Part shown: positions 18,169-32,000 of the stretch, piece after piece
Position numbering within the stretch: the stretch's first letter is position 1
Layout: each line of letters starts with the position of its first letter
Origin: Flavobacteriaceae bacterium
GTDB lineage: Bacteria > Bacteroidota > Bacteroidia > Flavobacteriales > Flavobacteriaceae
Reading direction: 5' to 3'
Length of the DNA stretch: 32,000 bases
Assembly: GCA_965224465.1 (NCBI GenBank)
Contig: OZ245049.1
Location: 2,880,001-2,912,000, forward strand
Position numbers and translations under genes: made by a program
The notes under the pieces: generated by a model
What the model was told of the DNA's origin: nothing
The model's input: only the letters and a program-made list of their open reading frames with translations
Databases searched by the model: none

Positions 18169-19077
18169 TCAATTCCCCCAGTATAACATCATATTTAATT
18201 CAATCGGCTCATAAAACACAGGACTCATATCTATTTTATAGAGGATAAATTCGGTAAACCTCGTCGTCGCAAAACTATGATTTGCACCATTAGAAAAACA
18301 TATTCCAAAATTATGGTTCTTTGAAAACCTATCAGAAGCGTTAACCGATCCACTATTTTTTAATACATTATCCTTTCTTAGAATTACTTTGTCCAACTTA
18401 CGAACAAAAGTAAATTGCGCCCAAGTATTATCAGGATTCACAAAACTTCTTGGACCAGTACAGCAAGTACCACCATCAAAATAAGCATTTCCATCATCCA
18501 AATTTAAGTGAGATGACCAACGTTCACCACTCAGAAGAACACCAAAACTATTTTGACTTTTACTTGTTGAAAAAAAATACCCTATCACAGTTCCTTCTTT
18601 CCCATTATTGGTCACATTTTGCATATTTCCACTAGCAACAATCAATTTATCGTCTATACCATCCCCTGCTAAATAAGGACGTATAGGATCTGGATAAAAA
18701 CGAGGTTGTTTTGTACTATTTCCTTGTCCTGCATCACCTGCAATACCACCTTGATTGTACCATTTTTGAACATACACATTAGCCGTACCCCTCCAGGCAT
18801 TAATAGCTTCGACATCAACCATTCCTTGACTTGTAGCAGAAAAATTTGAAAATGTATTATCCGAATCTCTTCTTAAACGAATTAGTGGACCATTGTAATC
18901 AGTAATTATTTTTCGCATAGAAAAGGCAAAACTCAACATACTTGACTCAATATCGGGAATCGCAACTTGATCAACTACCAAGGGCGTCATAGTAGGATAT
19001 TGATTAAAATAGGCAATTTGAGCACCTGCATCTATACAACAACTTAAAATAAGTAAAAAAACAAGTCTATTTAACAT
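18169..19077 (-). CDS. secreted GH54-like/concanavalin-like protein (cassette B, gene 2), paralog of 16677-17639
   Basis: The ORF is open to 19128. The ATG at 19077 gives signal peptide MLNRLVFLLILSCCIDAGAQ and lies 2 nt after the upstream gene's stop (TGAtcATG). Shared blocks with the paralog are FAFSMRKIITDYNGPLIRLRRDSDN, WYNQGG, QPRFYPDPIRPY, DGNAYFDGGTCC and ILY. Identity by eye is ~40%. Confidence 0.75.
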   Translation of the reverse strand: MLNRLVFLLILSCCIDAGAQIAYFNQYPTMTPLVVDQVAIPDIESSMLSFAFSMRKIITDYNGPLIRLRRDSDNTFSNFSATSQGMVDVEAINAWRGTANVYVQKWYNQGGIAGDAGQGNSTKQPRFYPDPIRPYLAGDGIDDKLIVASGNMQNVTNNGKEGTVIGYFFSTSKSQNSFGVLLSGERWSSHLNLDDGNAYFDGGTCCTGPRSFVNPDNTWAQFTFVRKLDKVILRKDNVLKNSGSVNASDRFSKNHNFGICFSNGANHSFATTRFTEFILYKIDMSPVFYEPIELNMMLYWGN

Positions 19078-19079
19078 GA

Positions 19080-19601
19080 TCAATTTTTTAAATCTCCCGT
19101 TAAATGATATGTGTTTAGCGCCGTGCATAAAACACCAACACCCGCATGTTTCCCTGCCGTCTGAAAATAATTTAGACGGTGAAAAACGGTGACTCCAGCA
19201 GCACCAATAATCGTGATTTTCCCATCACCTGTCTGATAAATACTAATATGAGTCCCTATAGGAGTACCTGCAGGCAATGTAAATTCAACATCTTGAGTAC
19301 TCTCTATGGTAAAAGCCATCCCACTTTCAACTTCTTTTAAGGTATAAGAACCTGTTTTATGTATTATTTTTGCATATTTAGTAATCAAGATTTTTAAAGA
19401 ACCATCAGACGCTCCAATATATTGAATATCATTGGTAATGTCTTTGTACATATCCCCTTCTCCAGCTGTTTTACTAAAGTGAATTCCCGCTATTTCAACC
19501 TCCGTATAATTCTGACCATAGCACATACCTACCGATAATAAAATAGGGCTCAACTTGTAAATAGCGTATTTATTTCGTAACTTACTGAAAAACAGAATCA
19601 T
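19080..19601 (-). CDS. small secreted protein paralog (cassette B, gene 1), 5' end interrupted by an IS; the first 18 codons are IS-derived
   Basis: 173-aa ORF sharing AGEGDMY, PIGTHISIYQTGDGKITIIGAAG, HRLNYFQTAGKHAGVGVLCT and HLTGDLKN with 16055-16627. Codons 1-18 (MILFFSKLRNKYAIYKLS) lie inside the IS left end (from 19547 upward). The native N-terminus is displaced to 20646-20673. Confidence 0.7.
   Translation of the reverse strand: MILFFSKLRNKYAIYKLSPILLSVGMCYGQNYTEVEIAGIHFSKTAGEGDMYKDITNDIQYIGASDGSLKILITKYAKIIHKTGSYTLKEVESGMAFTIESTQDVEFTLPAGTPIGTHISIYQTGDGKITIIGAAGVTVFHRLNYFQTAGKHAGVGVLCTALNTYHLTGDLKN
19539..19546. repeat. target-site duplication TAAAATAG (left copy)
   Basis: Identical 8-mer directly abuts both IS termini, at 19539-19546 and 20638-20645. 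Confidence 0.8.
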
Positions 19602-20637
19602 TATGGATAATTCAGCTATTTTAAAATATTTTGACTGTCTAGATGTAACTAAGCAGGATATTTTGCTTAAAGAATTTCAGTCTCTTTGCAAATCAGGAAG
19701 TTATGTAGATATTATTAAAATGAGAGGGAATGCTTTAGATGACAGAAGGGGTGAATGCCCTTACTGCAATGGCTATCACTATATAAAAGCAGGTGTAGAT
19801 AAAAACAGCAGGCGTTATAAATGTAAAGATTGTAAACGTACTTTTACTGAATTTACCGGCAGTTGGCTAGCTGGGATACACAAAAAGCAACGCATACCAG
19901 CCTTTTTAAAAACACTTGAATTGAATTTAAGTTTGGTTAAAACAGGAAAGGATCTTTCCATAGATCCAGGGACGGCATTTAGATGGCGTCATCGTTTTTT
20001 ATCTGCTATGTTCCAAGAAACCACAGGTCATTTCAAAGGAATCACCGAGAGTGATGAGACCTTTTATTTACACAGTCAAAAAGGTAAAAAGTGTGTACAT
20101 AGACCTCCCAGAAGTAGATCCGAAAAGAAAGGGGCAGGTATAACAAAAGAATACGCAACGGTATTAACAACCCAAGATAGAGCAGAACTATGCGTTTCTA
20201 AATTTACAAATATGGGCAGAATTACCAAGAGTAATATAAAAAACACTATCGGAAGCATGGTAGATAATAGAACCGTATTTTGTTCTGATGGACACCGTAG
20301 TTTTACTGGGTTTAGTAAGGATTTACATTTAGAGCATCATGTTTTAAACAGCAGTAAAAACCAACGAGTCAAAGGGACTTATCATATTCAGCACATCAAT
20401 AGTTTGCATAGTAGGTTAAAGACATTTTGTAACGTAAAATTAAAAGGAGTATCCACAAAATATCTTCAAAAATATTTAAATTGGCAAACAATTAAAGATT
20501 CATATCGTAAAGAATCAAATTGGGTAGTTACTGTCCTTAAGTACTCAATGAAACGTTCAAATGCAATTAAAATATATAACAATATCCAAACTGATTATAA
20601 CAAAATTTTTATAACAACGCTAAATGCTAGTTGAGCC
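19547..20637 (+). mobile_element. IS1595-family insertion sequence (1091 bp)
   Basis: Imperfect terminal inverted repeats: GGCTCAACTTGTAAATAGCGTATTTAT on the left versus the reverse complement of the right end, GGCTCAACTAGCATTTAGCGTTGTTAT (20/27, first 9 nt identical). There is one transposase ORF whose stop lies in the right IR, and a perfect 8-bp flanking direct repeat. Confidence 0.85.
19603..20634 (+). CDS. IS1595-family transposase (N-terminal zinc ribbon plus DDE domain)
   Basis: 343-aa ORF with zinc ribbon CPYCNGYHYIKAG..RRYKCKDCKRTF, followed by DDE-type blocks ITESDETFYL and VFCSDGHRSF. Size and architecture fit IS1595 (ISXO2-like) transposases. Confidence 0.85.
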   Translation: MDNSAILKYFDCLDVTKQDILLKEFQSLCKSGSYVDIIKMRGNALDDRRGECPYCNGYHYIKAGVDKNSRRYKCKDCKRTFTEFTGSWLAGIHKKQRIPAFLKTLELNLSLVKTGKDLSIDPGTAFRWRHRFLSAMFQETTGHFKGITESDETFYLHSQKGKKCVHRPPRSRSEKKGAGITKEYATVLTTQDRAELCVSKFTNMGRITKSNIKNTIGSMVDNRTVFCSDGHRSFTGFSKDLHLEHHVLNSSKNQRVKGTYHIQHINSLHSRLKTFCNVKLKGVSTKYLQKYLNWQTIKDSYRKESNWVVTVLKYSMKRSNAIKIYNNIQTDYNKIFITTLNAS

Positions 20638-23565: not shown

Positions 23566-24096
23566 TTATTTAAACAGCTCATAAACTTCATTTGCTGGAT
23601 CGTCATCATCCTTTTTACGTATATTCAACATAAAACCATTGTTGCGTAATAAAGCCTTAGACCTAACATTATCCGAATGGGTGTACGCTTCTATCATTTC
23701 AAAATCACAAGCCTTAAACCCATAGTTTACCACTAGTAAAAGCGCTTCATTCATAATTCCTTTTCCCTGATAACAAGGATGTAAAGCATATCCCAATTCT
23801 GCGGTTTTCATATCATTAGAATAATTCCATAAACAAATACTTCCAATCATTTGATCTGATTCAGCAACACAAATACACCAACTAATTGATTGAACTTGGT
23901 CATATTCTCTAGCTATTTTATCTATAAAGTTCAATGCATCAGAAAGCGATTTTGTCTTGCAATCTTCGGGACGTTCAATAAATTTATTCACCTCCGAATC
24001 TGAACGAAGGAAATAGATTTGATCGGCATCAAGTTTTGTAGTTTCTCGAAGGATAAGACGGTCTGATTTTAATATTGGAAATATAGGTGTTTTCAT
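23566..24096 (-). CDS. GNAT-family N-acetyltransferase (RimJ/RimL-like)
   Basis: 176-aa ORF with an N-terminal ..DRLILRETTKLDADQIYFLRSD.. pattern, a QGKGIMNEAL motif-A-like segment, and a size typical of the Acetyltransf_3 type. Confidence 0.8.
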   Translation of the reverse strand: MKTPIFPILKSDRLILRETTKLDADQIYFLRSDSEVNKFIERPEDCKTKSLSDALNFIDKIAREYDQVQSISWCICVAESDQMIGSICLWNYSNDMKTAELGYALHPCYQGKGIMNEALLLVVNYGFKACDFEMIEAYTHSDNVRSKALLRNNGFMLNIRKKDDDDPANEVYELFK

Positions 24097-24964
24097 TTTT
24101 TTCTATTTTGTGATATTGCTATTCTAGCACTTCAAAACAACAGCAATCACGCTTGTTCTTCCGTGGTTTTATAACTGTTTTTAAGCTAATTTACTCGTAA
24201 TTCAACTGGAATATTCCCCTATGATTCTTTAAAAATTCTCCACAAACATAGCACTGTAATTTGTACCTAGCCACAGCGCAGCAACATAAATAAATAATAC
24301 ACATTCTAATCCTTAATAAGCTTATTCTATGTAAACTATGCAACGATTAGCCTGACGCCAACTTTGTAGGGTCACGGCATGAATACTAATATATATTCTG
24401 GAATACACTCGAAAGCTAGCTTAAATATAATATTGTGAGCTGCATTAGCTTCCCTTTTTAAACAATCCTATATACTTTTTTGTAGCAAATGGGATACTCG
24501 TTTTTTTGGAGGCAATCAATTGTCGTAATTACCTTTCCTTTTTTTATCGAAAAATTATGTGCCACTATACTTAAAGCAGGCGCTAACTTATAACTTTAAT
24601 AAGACGCAGTTAATCGCGATCTAATGAACTATTTAAGTCATCATATATAATGATTACATTTACAGAAAACACAACACTCATTAGGTGACATAATACCTTT
24701 TCGTTTTGTTTTACCTTATCATTAAAGGAGCAAATACTCTTTTTAGGAGCACTACAAGCTACTAAAGATATTATTAATACGTAAATAAAATTACTTTTTA
24801 TAAAAATATAATGACTGATAAATCTATTCTCAACACCTTATATAGCAGTGTTTTCTTGATTTTACATACTAAAACTTTCTTTTTTTATTCTTTTTTATTT
24901 GCAAGAGTGATCAGTATTTCTGCACTAATTCAAGCTATTTTACACCGTTTTATAGCCGCCTAAT

Positions 24965-25594
24965 TTATGATTCTATTGGAGTTCCTTTTTCGTAATAAAT
25001 AATTTTCTTAATAGCGCCCTGTTCATCATAATCACACCATTTCCCTTCTTTTTTTCCGTTTAGATAATTTCCTTCTTGTTTTAAAATTCCTGATTTGTAG
25101 TAATAATCTTCACACTTACCATTGCCTTTAAAGCCGAATGTGGTTTTATAAAGTATCTCTCCTTTCATATTGTAAACTCTATACCTTCCCAAAATCAAGC
25201 CTTTATTCCAATTTTCAGTTTTTACAAGTTTGTTTTTAAATGTAGTTTTCCATAAACCATTTTTGTAGCCATTGAAGAAAAATCCTTCTAAATAAATATG
25301 CGTACTTATTCCTTTAAACCCATAATTTAAAAGTACATCGCACTCAATAATTTTCATAGAACGATAAGGTTGAGGCTTTTTAACTTTCCTTTTCCTAATC
25401 ATAATTAGATATTCACTATTTATAAGTACGTTACTTTTTTTGATAAAAGAGAAAAATTCTTTACCTGATTTAATAGTGGTTCTTAAGTTTAAAGAATTGA
25501 CATAAATAGCAGGCATCTGGACTATTTCTTTATGTTTTTGACCGAAAACGTTAATGCACAGCATTAATACGATTACAAGAAGTATCTTTTTCAT
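24965..25594 (-). CDS. secreted MORN-variant/YwqK-family repeat protein, candidate immunity protein for the upstream metallopeptidase
   Basis: 209-aa ORF starting 5 nt after the stop of the 569-aa gene. It has Sec signal peptide MKKILLVIVLMLCINVFGQ and repeats of the YwqK/MORN-variant type (GYKNGLWKTTF.., EGNYLNGKKEGKWCDYDEQGAIKKIIYYEKG). Confidence 0.65.
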   Translation of the reverse strand: MKKILLVIVLMLCINVFGQKHKEIVQMPAIYVNSLNLRTTIKSGKEFFSFIKKSNVLINSEYLIMIRKRKVKKPQPYRSMKIIECDVLLNYGFKGISTHIYLEGFFFNGYKNGLWKTTFKNKLVKTENWNKGLILGRYRVYNMKGEILYKTTFGFKGNGKCEDYYYKSGILKQEGNYLNGKKEGKWCDYDEQGAIKKIIYYEKGTPIES

Positions 25595-25599
25595 CTTCT

Positions 25600-27309
25600 T
25601 TATTTAACGCTATAAAATTTAATTATATCATCTTGCATTGCATTCCATTGATATTTCCAAAAGGAAGTTTTATTATTATCATAATCCATGATGTTTTCAG
25701 TTTTTGTTTTCTCAAAAAAATAGGGGTTTCTATAATATGTATTCAAATAACTCCTACAGTTTTTATAATTTTCTTTATAAGTATTCCATTTAACTACGAT
25801 TTCGTCCTTAGGCACATTGTTTGCAATCATAGAATTCATTGAATCATCTACTTGCTTAATAAATGTATTCATTTTAAATACATCTTCGTCCGTTGATTTT
25901 TCTTCAAATGAATGTGTAAGTCCTAGAACATGGGAAACTTCATGTACAAAACTTTTTTTATCCCCTAAATTTGATTGATAAATAACAAGTCGTTTTGCAT
26001 CAATCTCAGAGATTTCTCCTTCACCACCAACTTCTTCTTTTTTCAAGGGAGATAAAAACAAAACTAAACCTCTTTTTTTAGCTTCAATTGGATGTTGTTT
26101 TTTAAATTCTTTATCAAATTTCTCTAAGACCTCTTCGCCTTTAAAAACACAAGATTCTTCAACAATCAAATCATCTTTAATCCACTCATCCTCATTTATA
26201 ATAACGTCATGAACCTTGCCAATAGAACATTGTAATAAAGCTTGATTTAAAGATTGATTGTTTAGATATTCTTGTAAATTTTGTAAATCTCCGTTTAAAT
26301 CTTTGCTTTTATCTCCAAAACCGTGAGAACTGTCTATCATATCCTCAATTGCCTCTTTGTCTTTATCTTGAGAATTGCCTCTTAATATACGAACTGGAGT
26401 AATATTAAAATGTAATTGCTTGTGGTTATCATTTTTAAAAACATTCAATTTCCCAATCTCTTCATCATCTTTATCTAGTAACGAAATAACCGTGTCATTA
26501 CTTAAAGGTGATTCACAAATTATAGATATTTCTTTACCATTAGCTTCTGATACTTTGAGTTGGTTTGGTTCAAATTTTATTCCTCTTTGGGGAGGAAGTT
26601 TGATAATCTCTGTGTTTTTTGAGACACCTTCTATTTCTGTAATTATCAATTTTAGTTTTACCCCTTTTTGATTAGGAAACATGCTTAACCAAGGTACAAA
26701 ATAATCTGTATCATGAATTTTTGTAGGCGTGTATTCTTTTTTAAGTTTATTATAATCTTTACAAATAGTCTTGTAATTGTCTCTCATCCAATCAAAACCA
26801 AATTCGCCTTTATAGTTATCTGGTCTTTCTAGTTTTGCTGTAAATTTAAAATCTATGACTTCTTTCTCCTCATCGCTCTCTAAAACAGTAGGTTCAACTT
26901 CTACAAAAGGATCCTCAAATACCCAATTTTCTATTTTTTTAACGCCTTTTATTTTAATTGCGCCACACGATATCGCTAAATTAATGTGCAAGGGTAAATT
27001 GTCTTGATTGTCAAATTCTTCCGTAAGATCAATAATATAGGCTTTATGGAATTCTACTTTGTACAAAATTTTAAATTCATCTCTGTCATAAAATATTAAT
27101 TCACCACTAAAACTAGCATTTGGTGAGAACATATAGAGATACAAGTCGCTATCAAACCCAGTAGATTCAAACATTAAATGGAATGGGCTTTTACGAGTTG
27201 TTGTCGTAGGGTTGCCCGTAATATCTATTAGTTTGTATAAGGTGTATTCTGCCTTTAATAAGGTTCTTTCTTTTCCATCTATAATGGCGATGCCTTTAAA
27301 ACTACTCAT
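25600..27309 (-). CDS. TssD/Hcp-like N-terminal domain fused to a C-terminal metzincin-type zinc metallopeptidase domain (candidate T6SS-iii specialised-Hcp effector)
   Basis: 569-aa ORF. Residues 1-~130 follow the Bacteroidota TssD pattern (..GKERTLLKAEYTLYKLIDITGNP...HLMFESTGFDSDLYLYMFS..SGELIFYDRD...VEFHKAYIIDLTEEF...LAISCGAIKIKG..IENW). The exact motif HEVSHVLGLTH (HExxHxxGxxH) is at aa 456-466 (nt 25912-25944). A candidate Met-turn NIMDY is at aa 539-543. No signal peptide. Confidence 0.65.
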   Translation of the reverse strand: MSSFKGIAIIDGKERTLLKAEYTLYKLIDITGNPTTTTRKSPFHLMFESTGFDSDLYLYMFSPNASFSGELIFYDRDEFKILYKVEFHKAYIIDLTEEFDNQDNLPLHINLAISCGAIKIKGVKKIENWVFEDPFVEVEPTVLESDEEKEVIDFKFTAKLERPDNYKGEFGFDWMRDNYKTICKDYNKLKKEYTPTKIHDTDYFVPWLSMFPNQKGVKLKLIITEIEGVSKNTEIIKLPPQRGIKFEPNQLKVSEANGKEISIICESPLSNDTVISLLDKDDEEIGKLNVFKNDNHKQLHFNITPVRILRGNSQDKDKEAIEDMIDSSHGFGDKSKDLNGDLQNLQEYLNNQSLNQALLQCSIGKVHDVIINEDEWIKDDLIVEESCVFKGEEVLEKFDKEFKKQHPIEAKKRGLVLFLSPLKKEEVGGEGEISEIDAKRLVIYQSNLGDKKSFVHEVSHVLGLTHSFEEKSTDEDVFKMNTFIKQVDDSMNSMIANNVPKDEIVVKWNTYKENYKNCRSYLNTYYRNPYFFEKTKTENIMDYDNNKTSFWKYQWNAMQDDIIKFYSVK

Positions 27310-27469
27310 AGCTTATCAATTTTTTATAATATAAATTAGTTCGTACACTTTTGTTCACCATTTATGTTTTTTAATTGGCGCTCACCATATTCTCCACGCT
27401 ACTAAACGTATAGCAATAACAGATCCAACGGCTCCATATAAATCGTGACTTTAGGACACTATGGTTGTT

Positions 27470-27575
27470 AAAAAACCATAACAATATCGATGGCTATTCA
27501 TCGATTTTTTATCTAGACTCAACAAAATATGATTCATTCTCAAAACAATCATATAGAAATATATTTGTTATGATA
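27470..27575 (-). repeat. dispersed ~100-nt intergenic element, copy 2 (most diverged)
   Basis: The reverse complement (..ATAACAAATATATTTCTATATGATTG...CTAGATAAAAAATCGATGAATAGCCATCGAT..) aligns along its length with copy 1. Confidence 0.6.
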
Positions 27576-27840
27576 CAGCAACAAAAACTACGCTAAACAC
27601 AACAGAATAGCATAGAGTACACAATACAGACTTGCTAATACTTCCACTAAATTGTCTAGTAGAGACACTATATAAGCACATTTCAAATATACAAAAAATA
27701 GTTATATGCAATTGTTTTTTTAAAAAATAATCTCGGACTATTTTCGGTATTACAAACACAAGACATCACAGCCTGGTAACAGCAATTACAACCCAAATAA
27801 CCGATATAAATAATTTATTATAAGTTCTATTATTCTTAAA

Positions 27841-27942
27841 AAACAGAACCATAGCTATGGCTATCCATCCATTTTTCACCTAAAAAAACACAAAATTATT
27901 TCATTTCTAACCCATCACTTGGAAATGTATTTGGTATAACAC
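27841..27942 (-). repeat. dispersed ~100-nt intergenic element, copy 3
   Basis: The reverse complement (CCAAATACATTTCCAAGTGATGGGTTAGAAATG...AGGTGAAAAATGGATGGATAGCCATAGCTATGG) matches copy 1 at about 80% by eye. Confidence 0.7.
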
Positions 27943-28100
27943 AATGCTTATGAACAAACGGTTATAAATAAACCTCTAAAATATTAAAACCAGCAACTAA
28001 CTAAAGCTACCATTTTACAGACCTCTATAAACCAAGAGACTTATATTGTTGGTTTTTATAGCATAGAACGATGGCTAAACAATCATTTAAAAATACATTT

Positions 28101-28643
28101 TTATTGGACGCCTTGTTTTGGAGACCATTCCTTTAAAAAAGCCAATACTTTCTCTGTACTATGTCCTTTACCCTCTTCCAAAACCCCACTTTCTTGGGTG
28201 TGGATTCTTTTTCCTGTTGCATCAAGTATCACAAAAACTGGAAAACCGAAATTTTCTGGATTGTCCAATTTATCAAGTACTTCTTTATTCTTATTTTCTT
28301 TGCTATAATTTAAGTGATAAACCACAAAGTTTTTTTCTATCACAGATTTTAAAACCTCGGTAGTCTTTACTTTTTTATCAAACAAAATACACCAACTGCA
28401 CCAGTTCCCTCCTACCTGTAAAAGCACGTTTTTATCATCTTTAGCAGCTATAGCAATGGCTTTATCTATTTCAGCTTGGGCATTATCTTCTGGATGGTAA
28501 AGCTGTTTGTTTTTTACTTTTTTCTTGACAGATGTATTACTATTCACTTTCCCCTTGACAGATGTATTGCTATTTACAGTGCAACTGCTTATGATGATTG
28601 AAAAGACAACAAGTAGCACACGTGTATATTTAACCTTGATCAT
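28101..28643 (-). CDS. thioredoxin-fold lipoprotein (thioredoxin-like, CxxC = CSWC)
   Basis: 180-aa ORF with lipoprotein-type signal ..FSIIISSC, a Lys/Ser-rich linker containing a tandem 10-aa duplication, then GGNWCSWCILFDK, typical of Thioredoxin_7/DUF255-like thiol-disulfide proteins. Confidence 0.8.
   Translation of the reverse strand: MIKVKYTRVLLVVFSIIISSCTVNSNTSVKGKVNSNTSVKKKVKNKQLYHPEDNAQAEIDKAIAIAAKDDKNVLLQVGGNWCSWCILFDKKVKTTEVLKSVIEKNFVVYHLNYSKENKNKEVLDKLDNPENFGFPVFVILDATGKRIHTQESGVLEEGKGHSTEKVLAFLKEWSPKQGVQ
28515..28583. repeat. tandem ~30-bp duplication inside the thioredoxin-like gene linker
   Basis: CTTGACAGATGTATTACTATTCAC / CTTGACAGATGTATTGCTATTTAC, encoding NSNTSVKGKV / NSNTSVKKKV. 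Confidence 0.7.
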
Positions 28644-29828: not shown

Positions 29829-29864
29829 TACAATCCAAAATGATTGATATAAATAGTTTATTTT
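29829..29864. repeat. 36-bp direct repeat, copy 2 (overlaps the stop codon of the alpha-2-macroglobulin gene)
   Basis: See copy 1. The repeat period is 227 bp. Confidence 0.6.
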
Positions 29865-32000
29865 ACCACTTGTATCCATTTTCCTTGTGTTCTTGTAAAG
29901 AAATCGTGATCGTACATAGCTTGTGCTTGCACCCCAAACAGGTAATAATGACCTAAATAGGAGGCGTTCAATTGGACATTAAAGGTCTTGGTTCTTCTAG
30001 ATGCCAAATCAAAGTAAAAACTAACATGATCATCACGAATATCTGTGAAGTCTGCCTTGCTAGAAGATCTATTAGAAAAACCAGTAAAACGTGTATTCAA
30101 AATTTCCCATCCAGAAGGAAAAAACTCGGTCAATGCAATATCTTCTACCAAACGACTTTTCATATTTTCTACTGTTACTACAGCCATAAAATTAGTCCCT
30201 TGTTCTAACTGACTTACATCTAACACATTTCCTTTTGTATCCTTATACTTTACACTAATTTTAAGTCCTCTTTCTTCCGTTAATTCCTGTCCTAAAGGCA
30301 GTTTCCCAGAATTGATAACCGTTACAAAAACGACCGAAGATCCCGTATTAGATATTTTTAAAGTATTCAAACCATTAACAATATCTAATTTACGTTGTAT
30401 TAATGCCTTAGAAGATTTCAAAGCACTTGTTTTTTTATCATTTAACTTAAAATCAACCTCAAAATCTGAACCACCATTTTCCGACACCATCGTCGCCATT
30501 GCTAATAAAGAATAGGCGGTAGTTTGAGTACTCATCCAAGTATCAGAAGACAGGTCTTTTGCCAGATTTTTTGCAAGTTCCCTATATCCTTTATTTTTTA
30601 GTAAGACCATTGTTTCCATAGCCATTGCAAGGTTTCTAGTCGCAGAACCATAGGTGTAATAATCACGATTTTTAAGTGTAAAATCCATGCCAGCACTATT
30701 CACTAATTGTTGGGCAGCCTTAGGTTTACTCGCCAAGGCGTAAGCTGCAGCCAATCGCCATTTCCCAGGATTGGACAATTTACTGTATTCGCGCAACCTA
30801 TTCATGGCACTTAAATCGGGACTCCCTGCCAATGCAAGGGTATACAACCTATAAGCTTGCGCCAAATCTGAATAATTATAAGAACTTCCAGCACGCCAAT
30901 TTTTAGCTGCTTTTTTCTGATATTTTATCCATTTACTCATAAAGGTTAAAGGAAGCACGTATCCTTTTTTCTCCGCTGCAATCATAAAATGACCTGCATA
31001 GGTAGTTCCCCAGTCGTTGACGTAACTTTGCCCTATCCAGTAACTCATACCTCCATTGGATAATTGAAAACGATTCAATCGATCAATTCCTTTTTGAATA
31101 TTGTTATGAATTTCTTGTTTTTTCTGTAAGCTTAGATCAAAAATAGTTTCCAAAAACAATTGAGGAAAAACACTCGAAGTTGTTTGTTCAATACATCCGT
31201 GAGGATACTGAATCAAATATTTCATACGCTTGGTAAAATTCATAGGAGGCAGTAATGAAAACTCAACAAGAGCCGTATTTGTACCTTCAAGACCAAACGT
31301 AGAGAAGCTCATGGTGTTTGAGGATTTACCGTTCAGATCAAGGCTTAGCAACTTACTACTAATAGGATTAGGGTTTACCACATCCATTTCCACTGCATAA
31401 CTAGCTTTTTTACCATTTCCTTTTGCAATCACTTCAATGGTCTGTATCCCTCTAGATTTTGTAACCTCTAAGTCAAAAAACACCATTTTCTCATCTGGTT
31501 CGGTAAATACTAACTGTTTTGACGCATCACCAATAATACGAATACCATCACTCAATTTCAACCTAACTTTTACATTTTTAACCTTTTTACTCATGGCAAA
31601 AACAGTTACTGGAAGCCTCACCTTTTCCCCAGGGCTTAATTTCCGAGGTAAAGATGCTAAAACCATCAATGGTTGACGCACAGGAGTGCTTTTTTCTGCA
31701 CTTCCATAAGCAGCATTGGAGTTATCAGCGGCCACAATCATGGTACGTACTGCACCGATGTATTTCCCCATTTTAATGTGATGTTTTGCTGTTTTACCCT
31801 TTGCAATGGTAAACGGACCTAAATAAGTTACAACAGGCTTAAAACGGTTTGCTTTTTTGTTTTTAGCACCACTTGCTGCCTCATCACCACCAATGGCAAA
31901 TATTTGATCTAAACTACCTCCAAAAGCACCTATTACATCATCAAACATGTCCCAGGTTTTTACTCCCAGAGCTTCACGTTGATAAAACTGATCCCAAATA
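29858..32000 (-). CDS. alpha-2-macroglobulin family protein, C-terminal ~713 aa (gene continues beyond the window end)
   Basis: The reading frame is open from the stop at 29858-29860 to nt 32000. The thioester motif YPHGCIEQTTSS has CIEQ at nt 31184-31195. The following helical thioester-domain region (..LSNGGMSYW...WGTTYAGHF..) and the C-terminal receptor-binding-like domain fit bacterial A2M. Confidence 0.9.
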   Translation of the reverse strand, partial: IWDQFYQREALGVKTWDMFDDVIGAFGGSLDQIFAIGGDEAASGAKNKKANRFKPVVTYLGPFTIAKGKTAKHHIKMGKYIGAVRTMIVAADNSNAAYGSAEKSTPVRQPLMVLASLPRKLSPGEKVRLPVTVFAMSKKVKNVKVRLKLSDGIRIIGDASKQLVFTEPDEKMVFFDLEVTKSRGIQTIEVIAKGNGKKASYAVEMDVVNPNPISSKLLSLDLNGKSSNTMSFSTFGLEGTNTALVEFSLLPPMNFTKRMKYLIQYPHGCIEQTTSSVFPQLFLETIFDLSLQKKQEIHNNIQKGIDRLNRFQLSNGGMSYWIGQSYVNDWGTTYAGHFMIAAEKKGYVLPLTFMSKWIKYQKKAAKNWRAGSSYNYSDLAQAYRLYTLALAGSPDLSAMNRLREYSKLSNPGKWRLAAAYALASKPKAAQQLVNSAGMDFTLKNRDYYTYGSATRNLAMAMETMVLLKNKGYRELAKNLAKDLSSDTWMSTQTTAYSLLAMATMVSENGGSDFEVDFKLNDKKTSALKSSKALIQRKLDIVNGLNTLKISNTGSSVVFVTVINSGKLPLGQELTEERGLKISVKYKDTKGNVLDVSQLEQGTNFMAVVTVENMKSRLVEDIALTEFFPSGWEILNTRFTGFSNRSSSKADFTDIRDDHVSFYFDLASRRTKTFNVQLNASYLGHYYLFGVQAQAMYDHDFFTRTQGKWIQVVK

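Follow-up and report, generated by a model that had tools for sequence, protein, structure and literature searches.

In this study, we analysed a pair of adjacent genes in a window of 32,000 nucleotides (nt) from a Flavobacteriaceae bacterium (assembly GCA_965224465.1, contig OZ245049.1, positions 2,880,001 to 2,912,000; the window means this whole stretch, and positions are counted from its first letter). We consider it probable that the pair is an effector-immunity cassette belonging to a type VI secretion system (T6SS) of subtype iii (T6SS-iii), in which an 'evolved' Hcp effector of 569 amino acids (aa), i.e. a TssD/Hcp tube protein joined to a peptidase module, is accompanied by a periplasmic immunity protein of 209 aa. 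An earlier note, made from the letters of the window, had proposed such a pair at this position, and this overall reading is supported by the domain matches, by the exported partner, by the swapping of carriers among relatives and by relatives located in T6SS core clusters. The coordinates and lengths given there for the two open reading frames (ORFs), together with the 5 nt between the effector stop codon and the ATG of the 209-aa ORF, agree exactly with the ORF list. The features of the cassette are as follows.

25600..27309, minus strand: effector gene, 569 aa, with Hcp/TssD domain, linker, beta-rich domain and metzincin (ORF list; stop codon included)
26920..27309, minus strand: TssD/Hcp tube-protein domain, aa 1-130 (PF17642; PDB sequence matches; invariant residues)
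26845..26919, minus strand: acidic linker, aa 131-155 (EDPFVEVEPTVLESDEEKEVIDFKF...), covered by the low-confidence first ~20 residues of the module model
26371..26844, minus strand: predicted beta-rich domain, aa ~156-313 (AlphaFold strands at module positions 20-175, predicted local distance difference test (pLDDT) >90)
25603..26370, minus strand: putative metzincin catalytic domain, aa ~314-569 (Foldseek, PDB profile search, weak Pfam metzincin matches)
25912..25944, minus strand: zinc-binding signature HEVSHVLGLTH, aa 456-466 (H456, E457, H460, G463, H466), read from the sequence and conserved in the family
25681..25695, minus strand: Met-turn candidate NIMDY, aa 539-543 (family conservation)
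24965..25594, minus strand: candidate immunity gene, 209 aa, exported MORN-variant/YwqK-type repeat protein (ORF list)
25541..25594, minus strand: signal peptide of the candidate immunity protein, aa 1-18, with predicted cleavage between VFG and Q (hydrophobic leader; invariance of Q19)

The assignment of aa 1 to ~130 to an Hcp domain, already suggested by the earlier note, agrees with both Pfam and PDB matches. The TssD family (PF17642), the Hcp family of Bacteroidota, matched aa 3-130 with 94.3 bits against a cut-off of 25.8 (E 6.9e-27), and the match covered profile positions 2-128 of 128, i.e. the full length of the profile. When PDB sequences were compared by phmmer, a likeness to solved structures that is one of sequence only, Hcp1 (6bdc) was found at 3.7e-10 and the Bacteroidales TssD proteins 7yw0/8gra and 9qwl at about 1e-8 (7yw0 1.2e-8), over aa 4-132 of the effector. 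In an alignment with the hcp genes of related loci and the canonical Hcp of a Capnocytophaga T6SS cluster, the effector has every one of the eight residues that fused, split and canonical Hcps share without exception (E14, D29, G32, P34, D53, F87, F99 and W129). Its N-terminus, MSSFKGIAIIDGKERT, shows no hydrophobic leader and aligns with canonical Hcps from residue 1, as expected from the previous statement that the effector carries no signal peptide. The linker that follows (aa 131-155) is not conserved, and homologues carry other N-termini there.

Relatives of the remaining part of the effector were returned by a search of 5.8 billion proteins (65 relatives) and by a scan of species-representative genomes (64 loci), and 59 full-length proteins, the effector and 58 from the fetched loci, were compared. 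The unit conserved in this family corresponds to aa ~155-569 of the effector, from YKGEFGFDWMRDNY through HExxHxxGLxHSF ... NIMDY to past FWKYQW, and is called the module below. AlphaFold2, applied to aa 136-569 with the family alignment, gave a model with pLDDT 92.4 and a predicted template modelling score (pTM) of 0.89, consisting of a beta-rich region at model residues 20-175 followed by helices and an alpha/beta domain at 179-434. The model thus puts the start of the peptidase near aa 314, and the previously assumed start at aa 430 has to be given up.

The C-terminal HExxHxxGxxH signature and the possible NIMDY Met-turn recognised before are borne out by conservation, profile matches and predicted fold alike. 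Among 39 homologues, no exchange is seen at H456, E457, G463 and M541, while H460, H466 and D542 are at least 90% conserved; in the 59 full-length proteins N539 is invariant, with D542 and Y543 at least 90% conserved, and most of the distant members have N[IF]M[DS]Y. This conservation indicates that the zinc site and the Met-turn motifs are not due to chance. A Foldseek search of the PDB with the model placed ADAM17 (5e-5), VAP2 (2.8e-4) and ADAMTS-5 (2.9e-4; TM-score 0.51 normalised to the target) at the top, with probabilities of 0.99-1.0 for ADAM17, VAP2, ADAMTS-1 and ADAMTS-5 and of 0.96-0.99 for ADAMTS-4 (E 5e-5 to 5e-3), followed more weakly by profragilysin-3 and CpaA (E 3e-3 to 1e-2, probability 0.91-0.99). 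The family profile gave 127 weak matches among PDB sequences, the best being leucurolysin (E 0.0027 over 110 residues), and all of the best 60 listed were metzincins. Weak Pfam matches among the 39 members were to M10 (27 members), Reprolysin_5 (20), Reprolysin_4 (19), M43 (15), Reprolysin_3 (15), the 'Met-zincin' family DUF4953 (10) and Astacin (10). No Tox-MPTase family was matched by members of the family, nor by the effector at E <=1, and NCBIfam gave no match on the effector. Because of motif conservation, PDB profile matches and predicted fold, the passenger is best described as a metzincin-clan peptidase with a predicted adamalysin-like fold and without a curated family of its own.

With the metzincin clan (M12B adamalysins and ADAMTS, fragilysin, M10 matrixins, M43 pappalysins and ulilysin) the module shares HExxHxxGxxH, the downstream Met and the adamalysin-like predicted fold, and we take its pattern HExxHxLGLxHSF ... 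NxMDY to be most like that of pappalysin and ulilysin. Unlike members of the clan, it has neither signal peptide nor pro-domain, is putatively delivered by a contractile system, and carries an insert before the Met-turn: in the subfamily of the effector ~75 residues (aa 467-543, window 25681-25911) lie between the third zinc His and the Met-turn, compared with ~16-20 in distant members, and the subfamily model shows this insert as a long helical hairpin of ~60 residues. In 1.84 billion representatives at 50% identity, the family comprised 1512 clusters at E <=1e-3, 875 at <=1e-10 and 157 at <=1e-30, the weakest of which may reflect only the generic zinc motif. Pfam has no model of this family.

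The best-conserved motifs of the family, YKGEFGFDWMR and YFVPWLSMF, sit in the beta-rich domain, and the residues invariant in the 59 full-length proteins from many genera include G168, G171, D173, R176, Y203, C265, G286, Q356, H456, E457 and N539. No Pfam family matched the beta-rich domain, and in the fold search with the module model it gave weak Ig-like or PapD-like matches only. We considered whether the GEFGFDW region is a general marker of T6SS-iii cargo or adaptors and rejected this, as 21/21 divergent proteins also carry HExxH downstream. In these 21 proteins, VgrG fusions included, the [FY]GFDW motif is followed by HExxH 270-390 residues on, the full HExxHxxGxxH being present in 16 and an N-x-M-[DS]-Y Met-turn in 18. 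Since HExxH follows in all 21, we regard the beta-rich domain as obligate, making up one half of a single toxin module, and not as an adaptor; possibly it serves substrate recognition. An adaptor, named in the earlier note among the folds to be looked for in the middle region, is not supported in view of this constant pairing to HExxH.

It might be argued that the metzincin is a peptidase which processes or releases the protein itself and that the beta-rich domain with GEFGFDWMR is the real toxic or binding moiety, given that the strictest conserved residues of the family lie in this domain and that polymorphic and PVC-type toxins often contain releasing metallopeptidases (PMC3482391). However, such peptidases stand N-terminal to variable toxin domains, whereas here the peptidase is C-terminal with no variable toxin after it; both domains are constant, their order is fixed, and the pTM of the model predicts one rigid two-domain unit. 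A self-releasing role of the peptidase thus appears highly improbable, and we treat the metzincin as the putative toxic activity of the effector.

The second half of the argument concerns the 209-aa protein. It begins with a hydrophobic leader, MKKILLVIVLMLCINVFG, followed beyond the predicted cleavage site by QK, and Q19 is invariant in an alignment of 28 homologues. Signal peptides were recognised in 28/28 downstream partners examined, by inspection and without a dedicated predictor, mostly with Gln just past the predicted cleavage site and in a few cases lipoprotein-like. By tblastn and blastp, a homologue with 38-63% identity lies directly downstream of the module in loci L001-L013, and this position is kept behind Hcp-fused, PAAR-fused and stand-alone modules alike; two tandem copies each occur in L002, L006, L008 and L013. 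Weaker MORN-like ORFs stand at the same position in 11 more distant loci, so that at least 24 of the fetched loci have a partner in all. A partner kept directly downstream across carriers and genera, with tandem copies, is the pattern left by immunity to an antibacterial toxin. With 32 clusters the partner family is small, and its distribution follows that of the close subfamily of the effector.

That the partner is exported and of MORN/YwqK type, as the earlier note had it, agrees with the leaders, with the repeat consensus and with the MORN_2 matches of its orthologues. The alignment shows a repeat in the C-terminal half, G-Y-K-x-G-x-W-K ... G-x-Y-x-N-G-K-K-x-G-E-W, MORN_2 (PF07661) was matched by 14/26 positional orthologues at E <=0.1 (best 5.7e-7), and relatives are publicly named 'YwqK family antitoxin' or 'MORN repeat protein'. 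Searched as a profile against the PDB, the immunity family matched nothing. The family shares the repeat pattern G-x-K-x-G-x-W-x-x-Y-x-x-x-G with the YwqK-type/MORN_2 (PF07661, COG2849) antitoxins. YwqK of B. subtilis is cytoplasmic and paired with an LXG deaminase or nuclease toxin, whereas the partner family here is exported and paired with a peptidase. Another comparison is offered by the periplasmic inhibitors of serralysins (AprI, Inh, SmaPI; e.g. PDB 1smp), which are encoded beside the metzincin gene, block its active site and protect the periplasm of the producer. These are likewise small periplasmic proteins encoded next to a metzincin gene; however, they are beta-barrels and not MORN-repeat proteins, and their proteases are secreted by type I systems and are not interbacterial toxins.

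The nearest folds of the peptidase, i.e. ADAM, ADAMTS, venom metalloproteinases, fragilysin and CpaA, all act on eukaryotic proteins, and the organisms that carry the module are mostly marine or animal-associated Flavobacteriaceae, Capnocytophaga and Porphyromonas. The protease might thus be aimed at eukaryotic or extracellular targets, such as matrix proteins of a host, an alga or a grazer, with the downstream exported protein as an unrelated periplasmic or surface protein; the sole NCBIfam match of the partner, to a Leptospira MORN-type adhesin model (2e-5, far below its cut-off), would fit the same explanation. It is difficult to reconcile with a partner that is kept directly downstream across carriers and genera and is in tandem in four loci, and with the export of all partners, which fits a periplasm-acting toxin like VgrG2b with PA0261 (PMC6899460). 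We therefore regard a eukaryotic or extracellular target as improbable and an antibacterial toxin with its immunity protein as the better account of the pair; the toxin may still act in both kingdoms.

Module loci were found in the Flavobacteriaceae genera Aquimarina, Tenacibaculum, Algibacter, Tamlana, Lacinutrix, Flavivirga, Mariniflexile, Flavobacterium and Capnocytophaga, and further in Weeksellaceae (Chryseobacterium, Apibacter), Porphyromonas, Bernardetia, Crocinitomicaceae and Cryomorphaceae. Among the fetched loci, the sole family member outside Bacteroidota stems from a metagenome-assembled genome assigned to Steroidobacteraceae (Gammaproteobacteria; L058:9422-11200): a protein of 592 aa with HEILH, NIMSY and an unrecognised N-terminus of 190 aa, with no T6SS marker within 10 kb. 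This outlier could reflect horizontal transfer or a binning error.

The association with T6SS is frequent in these relatives: in 53/64 loci the fetched stretch contains one or more T6SS markers. Among the 59 full-length proteins, the module is carried by TssD in 15, by a PAAR-like DUF4280 domain in seven and by VgrG in three. In Capnocytophaga leadbetteri (L037) the gene order is TssF, TssC (781 bits), three Hcp genes, VgrG, a 152-aa ORF and the module, and in Algibacter lectus (L004) it is a ClpV-like ATPase, Hcp, a module 64% identical to that of the effector, the partner (61-63% identical) and TssC. Identity to the module of the effector amounts to 75% for a stand-alone paralogue in the same genome, 64% for split forms, 50-62% for Hcp fusions and 56% for PAAR-like fusions. 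The closest modules thus sit on differing carriers, which is the pattern of recombination and cassette swapping known from polymorphic toxins (PMC3482391).

Stand-alone modules also occur directly after an hcp gene whose stop overlaps the module start (L003, L014-16, L023, L026 and L028). In Tenacibaculum and Aquimarina the stand-alone module follows an hcp gene with a C-terminal extension of ~95 aa, and the stop codon of this hcp gene overlaps the module start; the two genes together correspond to the fusion of the window in split form. A separate module gene after an extended hcp is also present in Algibacter, and the loci with this layout in the three genera are L003:9124-9909, L014-L016, L023:9243-9932, L026, L028, L041 and L004:9228-9920; the ~95-aa extension is beta-rich (YFFENKNGERI...VILVIETENAEGETITIDL...), and stand-alone modules have an extra N-terminal peptide of ~25 aa, e.g. 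GIARFESGRGNTMEI. Judged from these sequences, extended Hcp and stand-alone module look like a non-covalent docking pair of Hcp and cargo, replaced by a fusion in the window. On the T6SS core contig of Tamlana sp. 2_MG-2023 (L065:14304-16996), a 231-aa extended TssD adjoining tssC is followed by genes of 469 aa and 191 aa. The 469-aa gene was considered as a copy of the module and rejected, and neither gene is related to the module or its partner; extended Hcps seem to carry differing cargo families. The module was further observed at the C-terminus of very large proteins, namely L047:443-4429 (Mesonia, 1328 aa), P0292, P0330 (1969 aa) and P0350 (1868 aa), in which 800-1500 residues without a recognised domain precede the module, P0330 having an N-terminal helix-hairpin-helix. 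These very large proteins may be a fourth kind of module carrier.

Several results weigh against an assignment of the pair to T6SS-iii as effector and immunity protein. The effector falls under every Pfam peptidase cut-off (M10 16.1 bits vs 24, Reprolysin_3 14.4 vs 22.4, M43 11.5 vs 23), and the 209-aa protein reaches 13.5 bits on MORN_2 against a cut-off of 29.6. The AlphaFold model of the partner, a run of beta-hairpin repeats, has a moderate pLDDT of 76.6, and Foldseek returned nothing for it at E <=1e-3, the matches to MORN1, junctophilin and SET7/9 being weak and not significant. The 5-nt spacing is the sole ground for the putative co-transcription of the two ORFs. Finally, Pfam scans found no further T6SS gene in the 20 other long ORFs of the window, and a tblastn search of the window with TssC, VgrG, Hcp, PAAR, ClpV and TssF seeds had the fused Hcp as its sole match; both agree with the earlier observation that the window holds no other T6SS gene.

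The absence of any other T6SS gene from the 32 kb favours the idea of a stranded relic: the genome would have no working T6SS-iii, the effector would not be deployed, and only the immunity gene might be useful as an acquired defence. The base composition fits as well: the guanine-plus-cytosine (GC) fraction across cassette and flanks (window 24000-28000) is 0.28-0.30, compared with 0.34-0.38 in the neighbouring genes (about 0.35 around), and therefore suggests horizontal acquisition. With the Algibacter TssC as query, none of the best 120 of 6003 matches came from the source contig, a result without weight for this question, as it covers those 120 only, on a plateau near 55% identity. On the other side, both ORFs are intact and every catalytic residue is present. 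Protein P0001, identical to the 569-aa effector, is encoded on a contig of 5,241,564 bp that carries two more intact module paralogues, P0003 (446 aa, 75% identical) and P0032 (437 aa, 40%), both with HExxHxxGLTH, and a second immunity paralogue, P0203 (61% identity). Moreover, Tamlana sp. 2_MG-2023 has the same orphan layout: an Hcp-metzincin fusion stands with two partner genes on contig 1 (L006), where no further T6SS gene lies within 10 kb, while TssC and TssD are found on contig 12 of the same assembly. A stranded relic accordingly has little probability in our estimate, and we favour a functional T6SS-iii cassette.

From these results the following mechanism is proposed for the cassette. 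The TssD domain would allow the 569-aa protein to join the Hcp tube as a specialised ('evolved') Hcp. The lumen of the Hcp ring is too small for a passenger of 434 residues, and because the passenger cannot fit the lumen, the effector probably sits as a ring at or near the spike end of the tube. Similarly, minor Hcps of Bacteroidales carry an adjacently encoded effector, and a spike-proximal site has been proposed for them (PMC13213661, PMC13035841). Contraction of the sheath would bring the covalently attached passenger into the periplasm of a neighbouring cell, where the zinc endopeptidase presumably cleaves one or more envelope proteins or peptides. The 209-aa protein would be exported through Sec, be processed by signal peptidase I and then bind, and putatively inhibit, the peptidase in the periplasm, which would protect the producer and its kin. 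By analogy with relatives, the low-GC cassette may be an accessory 'orphan' locus that relies on a T6SS-iii apparatus elsewhere in the genome. Metzincins are endopeptidases of proteins and peptides. Peptidoglycan cross-links, named earlier as one possible target, find no support, the analogous VgrG2b having no peptidoglycan hydrolase activity (PMC6899460).

The closest functional parallel is VgrG2b/Tpe1 with its immunity protein PA0261/Tpi1, a periplasmic toxin that depends on catalysis and may target lipoproteins (PMC6899460). In both cases an HExxH zinc metallopeptidase is fused to a secreted T6SS structural protein and acts, or in our case would act, in the periplasm, and in the VgrG2b/Tpe1 family too the immunity proteins are directed to the periplasm, through a signal peptide, a lipid anchor or a transmembrane helix, and bind the toxin to neutralise it (PMC6899460). 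On the other hand, VgrG2b/Tpe1 belongs to T6SS-i of Proteobacteria, PA0261 is not a MORN-repeat protein and the immunity proteins are unrelated, and the module of the window differs by its obligate beta-rich domain and metzincin signature. No VgrG or Tpe entry was present among the 60 of 127 PDB profile matches listed (E <=0.35, the others being weaker), and VgrG2b/Tpe1 was absent from the best 50 Foldseek matches; the C-terminal structure of VgrG2b is presumably in the PDB. The resemblance to the Tpe/Tpi family is functional only.

As regards architecture, the toxin domains reported for evolved Hcps of Enterobacteriaceae and Bacteroidales comprise nucleases, deaminases, DUF2235, a papain-like peptidase and unknowns. 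Hcp-ET1-5 are evolved Hcp effectors of Enterobacteriaceae (Ma et al. 2017, PMC5711352, as cited in PMC13213661), and 'evolved' Hcp-toxin fusions have been described for the GA2 T6SS-iii loci of Bacteroidales (Coyne et al. 2016, PMC4714493). In both groups an N-terminal Hcp/TssD is joined to a C-terminal toxin with an adjoining immunity gene, as in the window, and the GA2 proteins share the same TssD family and the same T6SS subtype. In contrast to these, the effector has a two-domain passenger of 434 aa and lies in an orphan locus of a marine Flavobacteriaceae, not in a GA2 variable region. The earlier note took Hcp-toxin fusions to be described mainly in Proteobacteria; since evolved Hcps have been described for Bacteroidales as well (PMC4714493), the phylum was already known to have this architecture, and only the toxin family is new to it. 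The words 'metallo' and 'peptidase' occur nowhere in the text of that paper (PMC4714493). Metallopeptidase toxins as such have precedents both among polymorphic toxin systems and in T6SS-i (PMC3482391, PMC6899460).

Among 8 million full texts we found no relevant paper on a metzincin in T6SS, and nothing pertinent was found in the literature on MORN-type immunity proteins of T6SS. Thus the metzincin toxin family, its obligate beta-rich domain and its MORN-type exported partner appear to be undescribed so far, and the earlier claim that an Hcp-metzincin fusion in T6SS-iii is uncharacterised agrees with this as regards the toxin family, the evolved-Hcp architecture as such being known (PMC4714493). 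A wider proposal can be made only tentatively, at somewhat less than an even chance of being right in full: the module may represent a large, Bacteroidota-wide T6SS-iii toxin family (~875 clusters) on Hcp, VgrG and PAAR-like carriers, undescribed and without a Pfam model, which would kill by cleaving a conserved envelope protein recognised via the invariant GEFGFDWMR domain and would be blocked by a new, MORN-variant class of metzincin inhibitor.

The cassette is bordered on either side by ~0.8 kb of non-coding DNA. A repeat search revealed no boundary repeats around it, with short AT-rich chance matches only; no flanking tRNA gene was found, Rfam had no match in the window, and neither orphan immunity fragments nor extra module copies were detected there by a search of the tblastn type. 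The other long ORFs of the window, 20 in number, were assigned by Pfam to housekeeping Bacteroidota genes and an IS1595 transposase. Two further features lie between the cassette and its upstream neighbour.

27486..27505, no strand assigned: hairpin located between the thioredoxin-like gene upstream and the effector gene (consensus scan only)
27684..27691, minus strand: candidate Bacteroidota -7 promoter element TATATTTG, 375 nt upstream of the effector start codon (pattern match only; low confidence)

The hairpin may be the terminator of the thioredoxin-like gene, which would make the effector pair its own transcription unit; the scan that gave it is weak, with 2 sites found vs 1.2 expected by chance. 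Sigma-70 promoter sites were rejected, as the scan equalled chance expectation and the sigma-70 consensus is not applicable to Bacteroidota. In the thioredoxin-like gene itself (28101-28643, minus strand) we observed a 30-nt tandem duplication (28513-28572), and the duplicated peptide NSNTSVKGKV/NSNTSVKKKV follows directly after the lipoprotein-like leader of the protein. An alpha-2-macroglobulin-like gene (bMG10, A2M and TED domains; 29858-31948, minus strand) lies 2.5 kb upstream of the cassette and probably runs past the window end; its product is a periplasmic protease-trapping inhibitor, and its presence near a protease-toxin locus is probably a coincidence. At 19603-20634 (plus strand) and 18169-19601 (minus strand), about 5 kb from the cassette, the IS1595-family transposase gene adjoins two ORFs (319 and 173 aa) without Pfam match.

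In our view the cassette is a credible new weapon of familiar design and not a new kind of system, and the concept of how such systems work is unchanged by it. Hardly any T6SS-iii effectors have been characterised in Bacteroidota from outside the human gut, and T6SS peptidase toxins are poorly understood in general, even the physiological substrate of VgrG2b not being settled (PMC6899460). The family is abundant and confidently modelled, with obvious catalytic residues and a cognate exported partner, so that experiments on toxicity, immunity and substrate trapping would be straightforward. If the proposed function is true, a metzincin would be added to the toxin repertoire of T6SS, and a MORN-repeat protein would join the short list of natural protein inhibitors of metzincins. 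In addition, the fused, split and swapped carrier forms provide a natural series for the loading of large cargo on Hcp in T6SS-iii.

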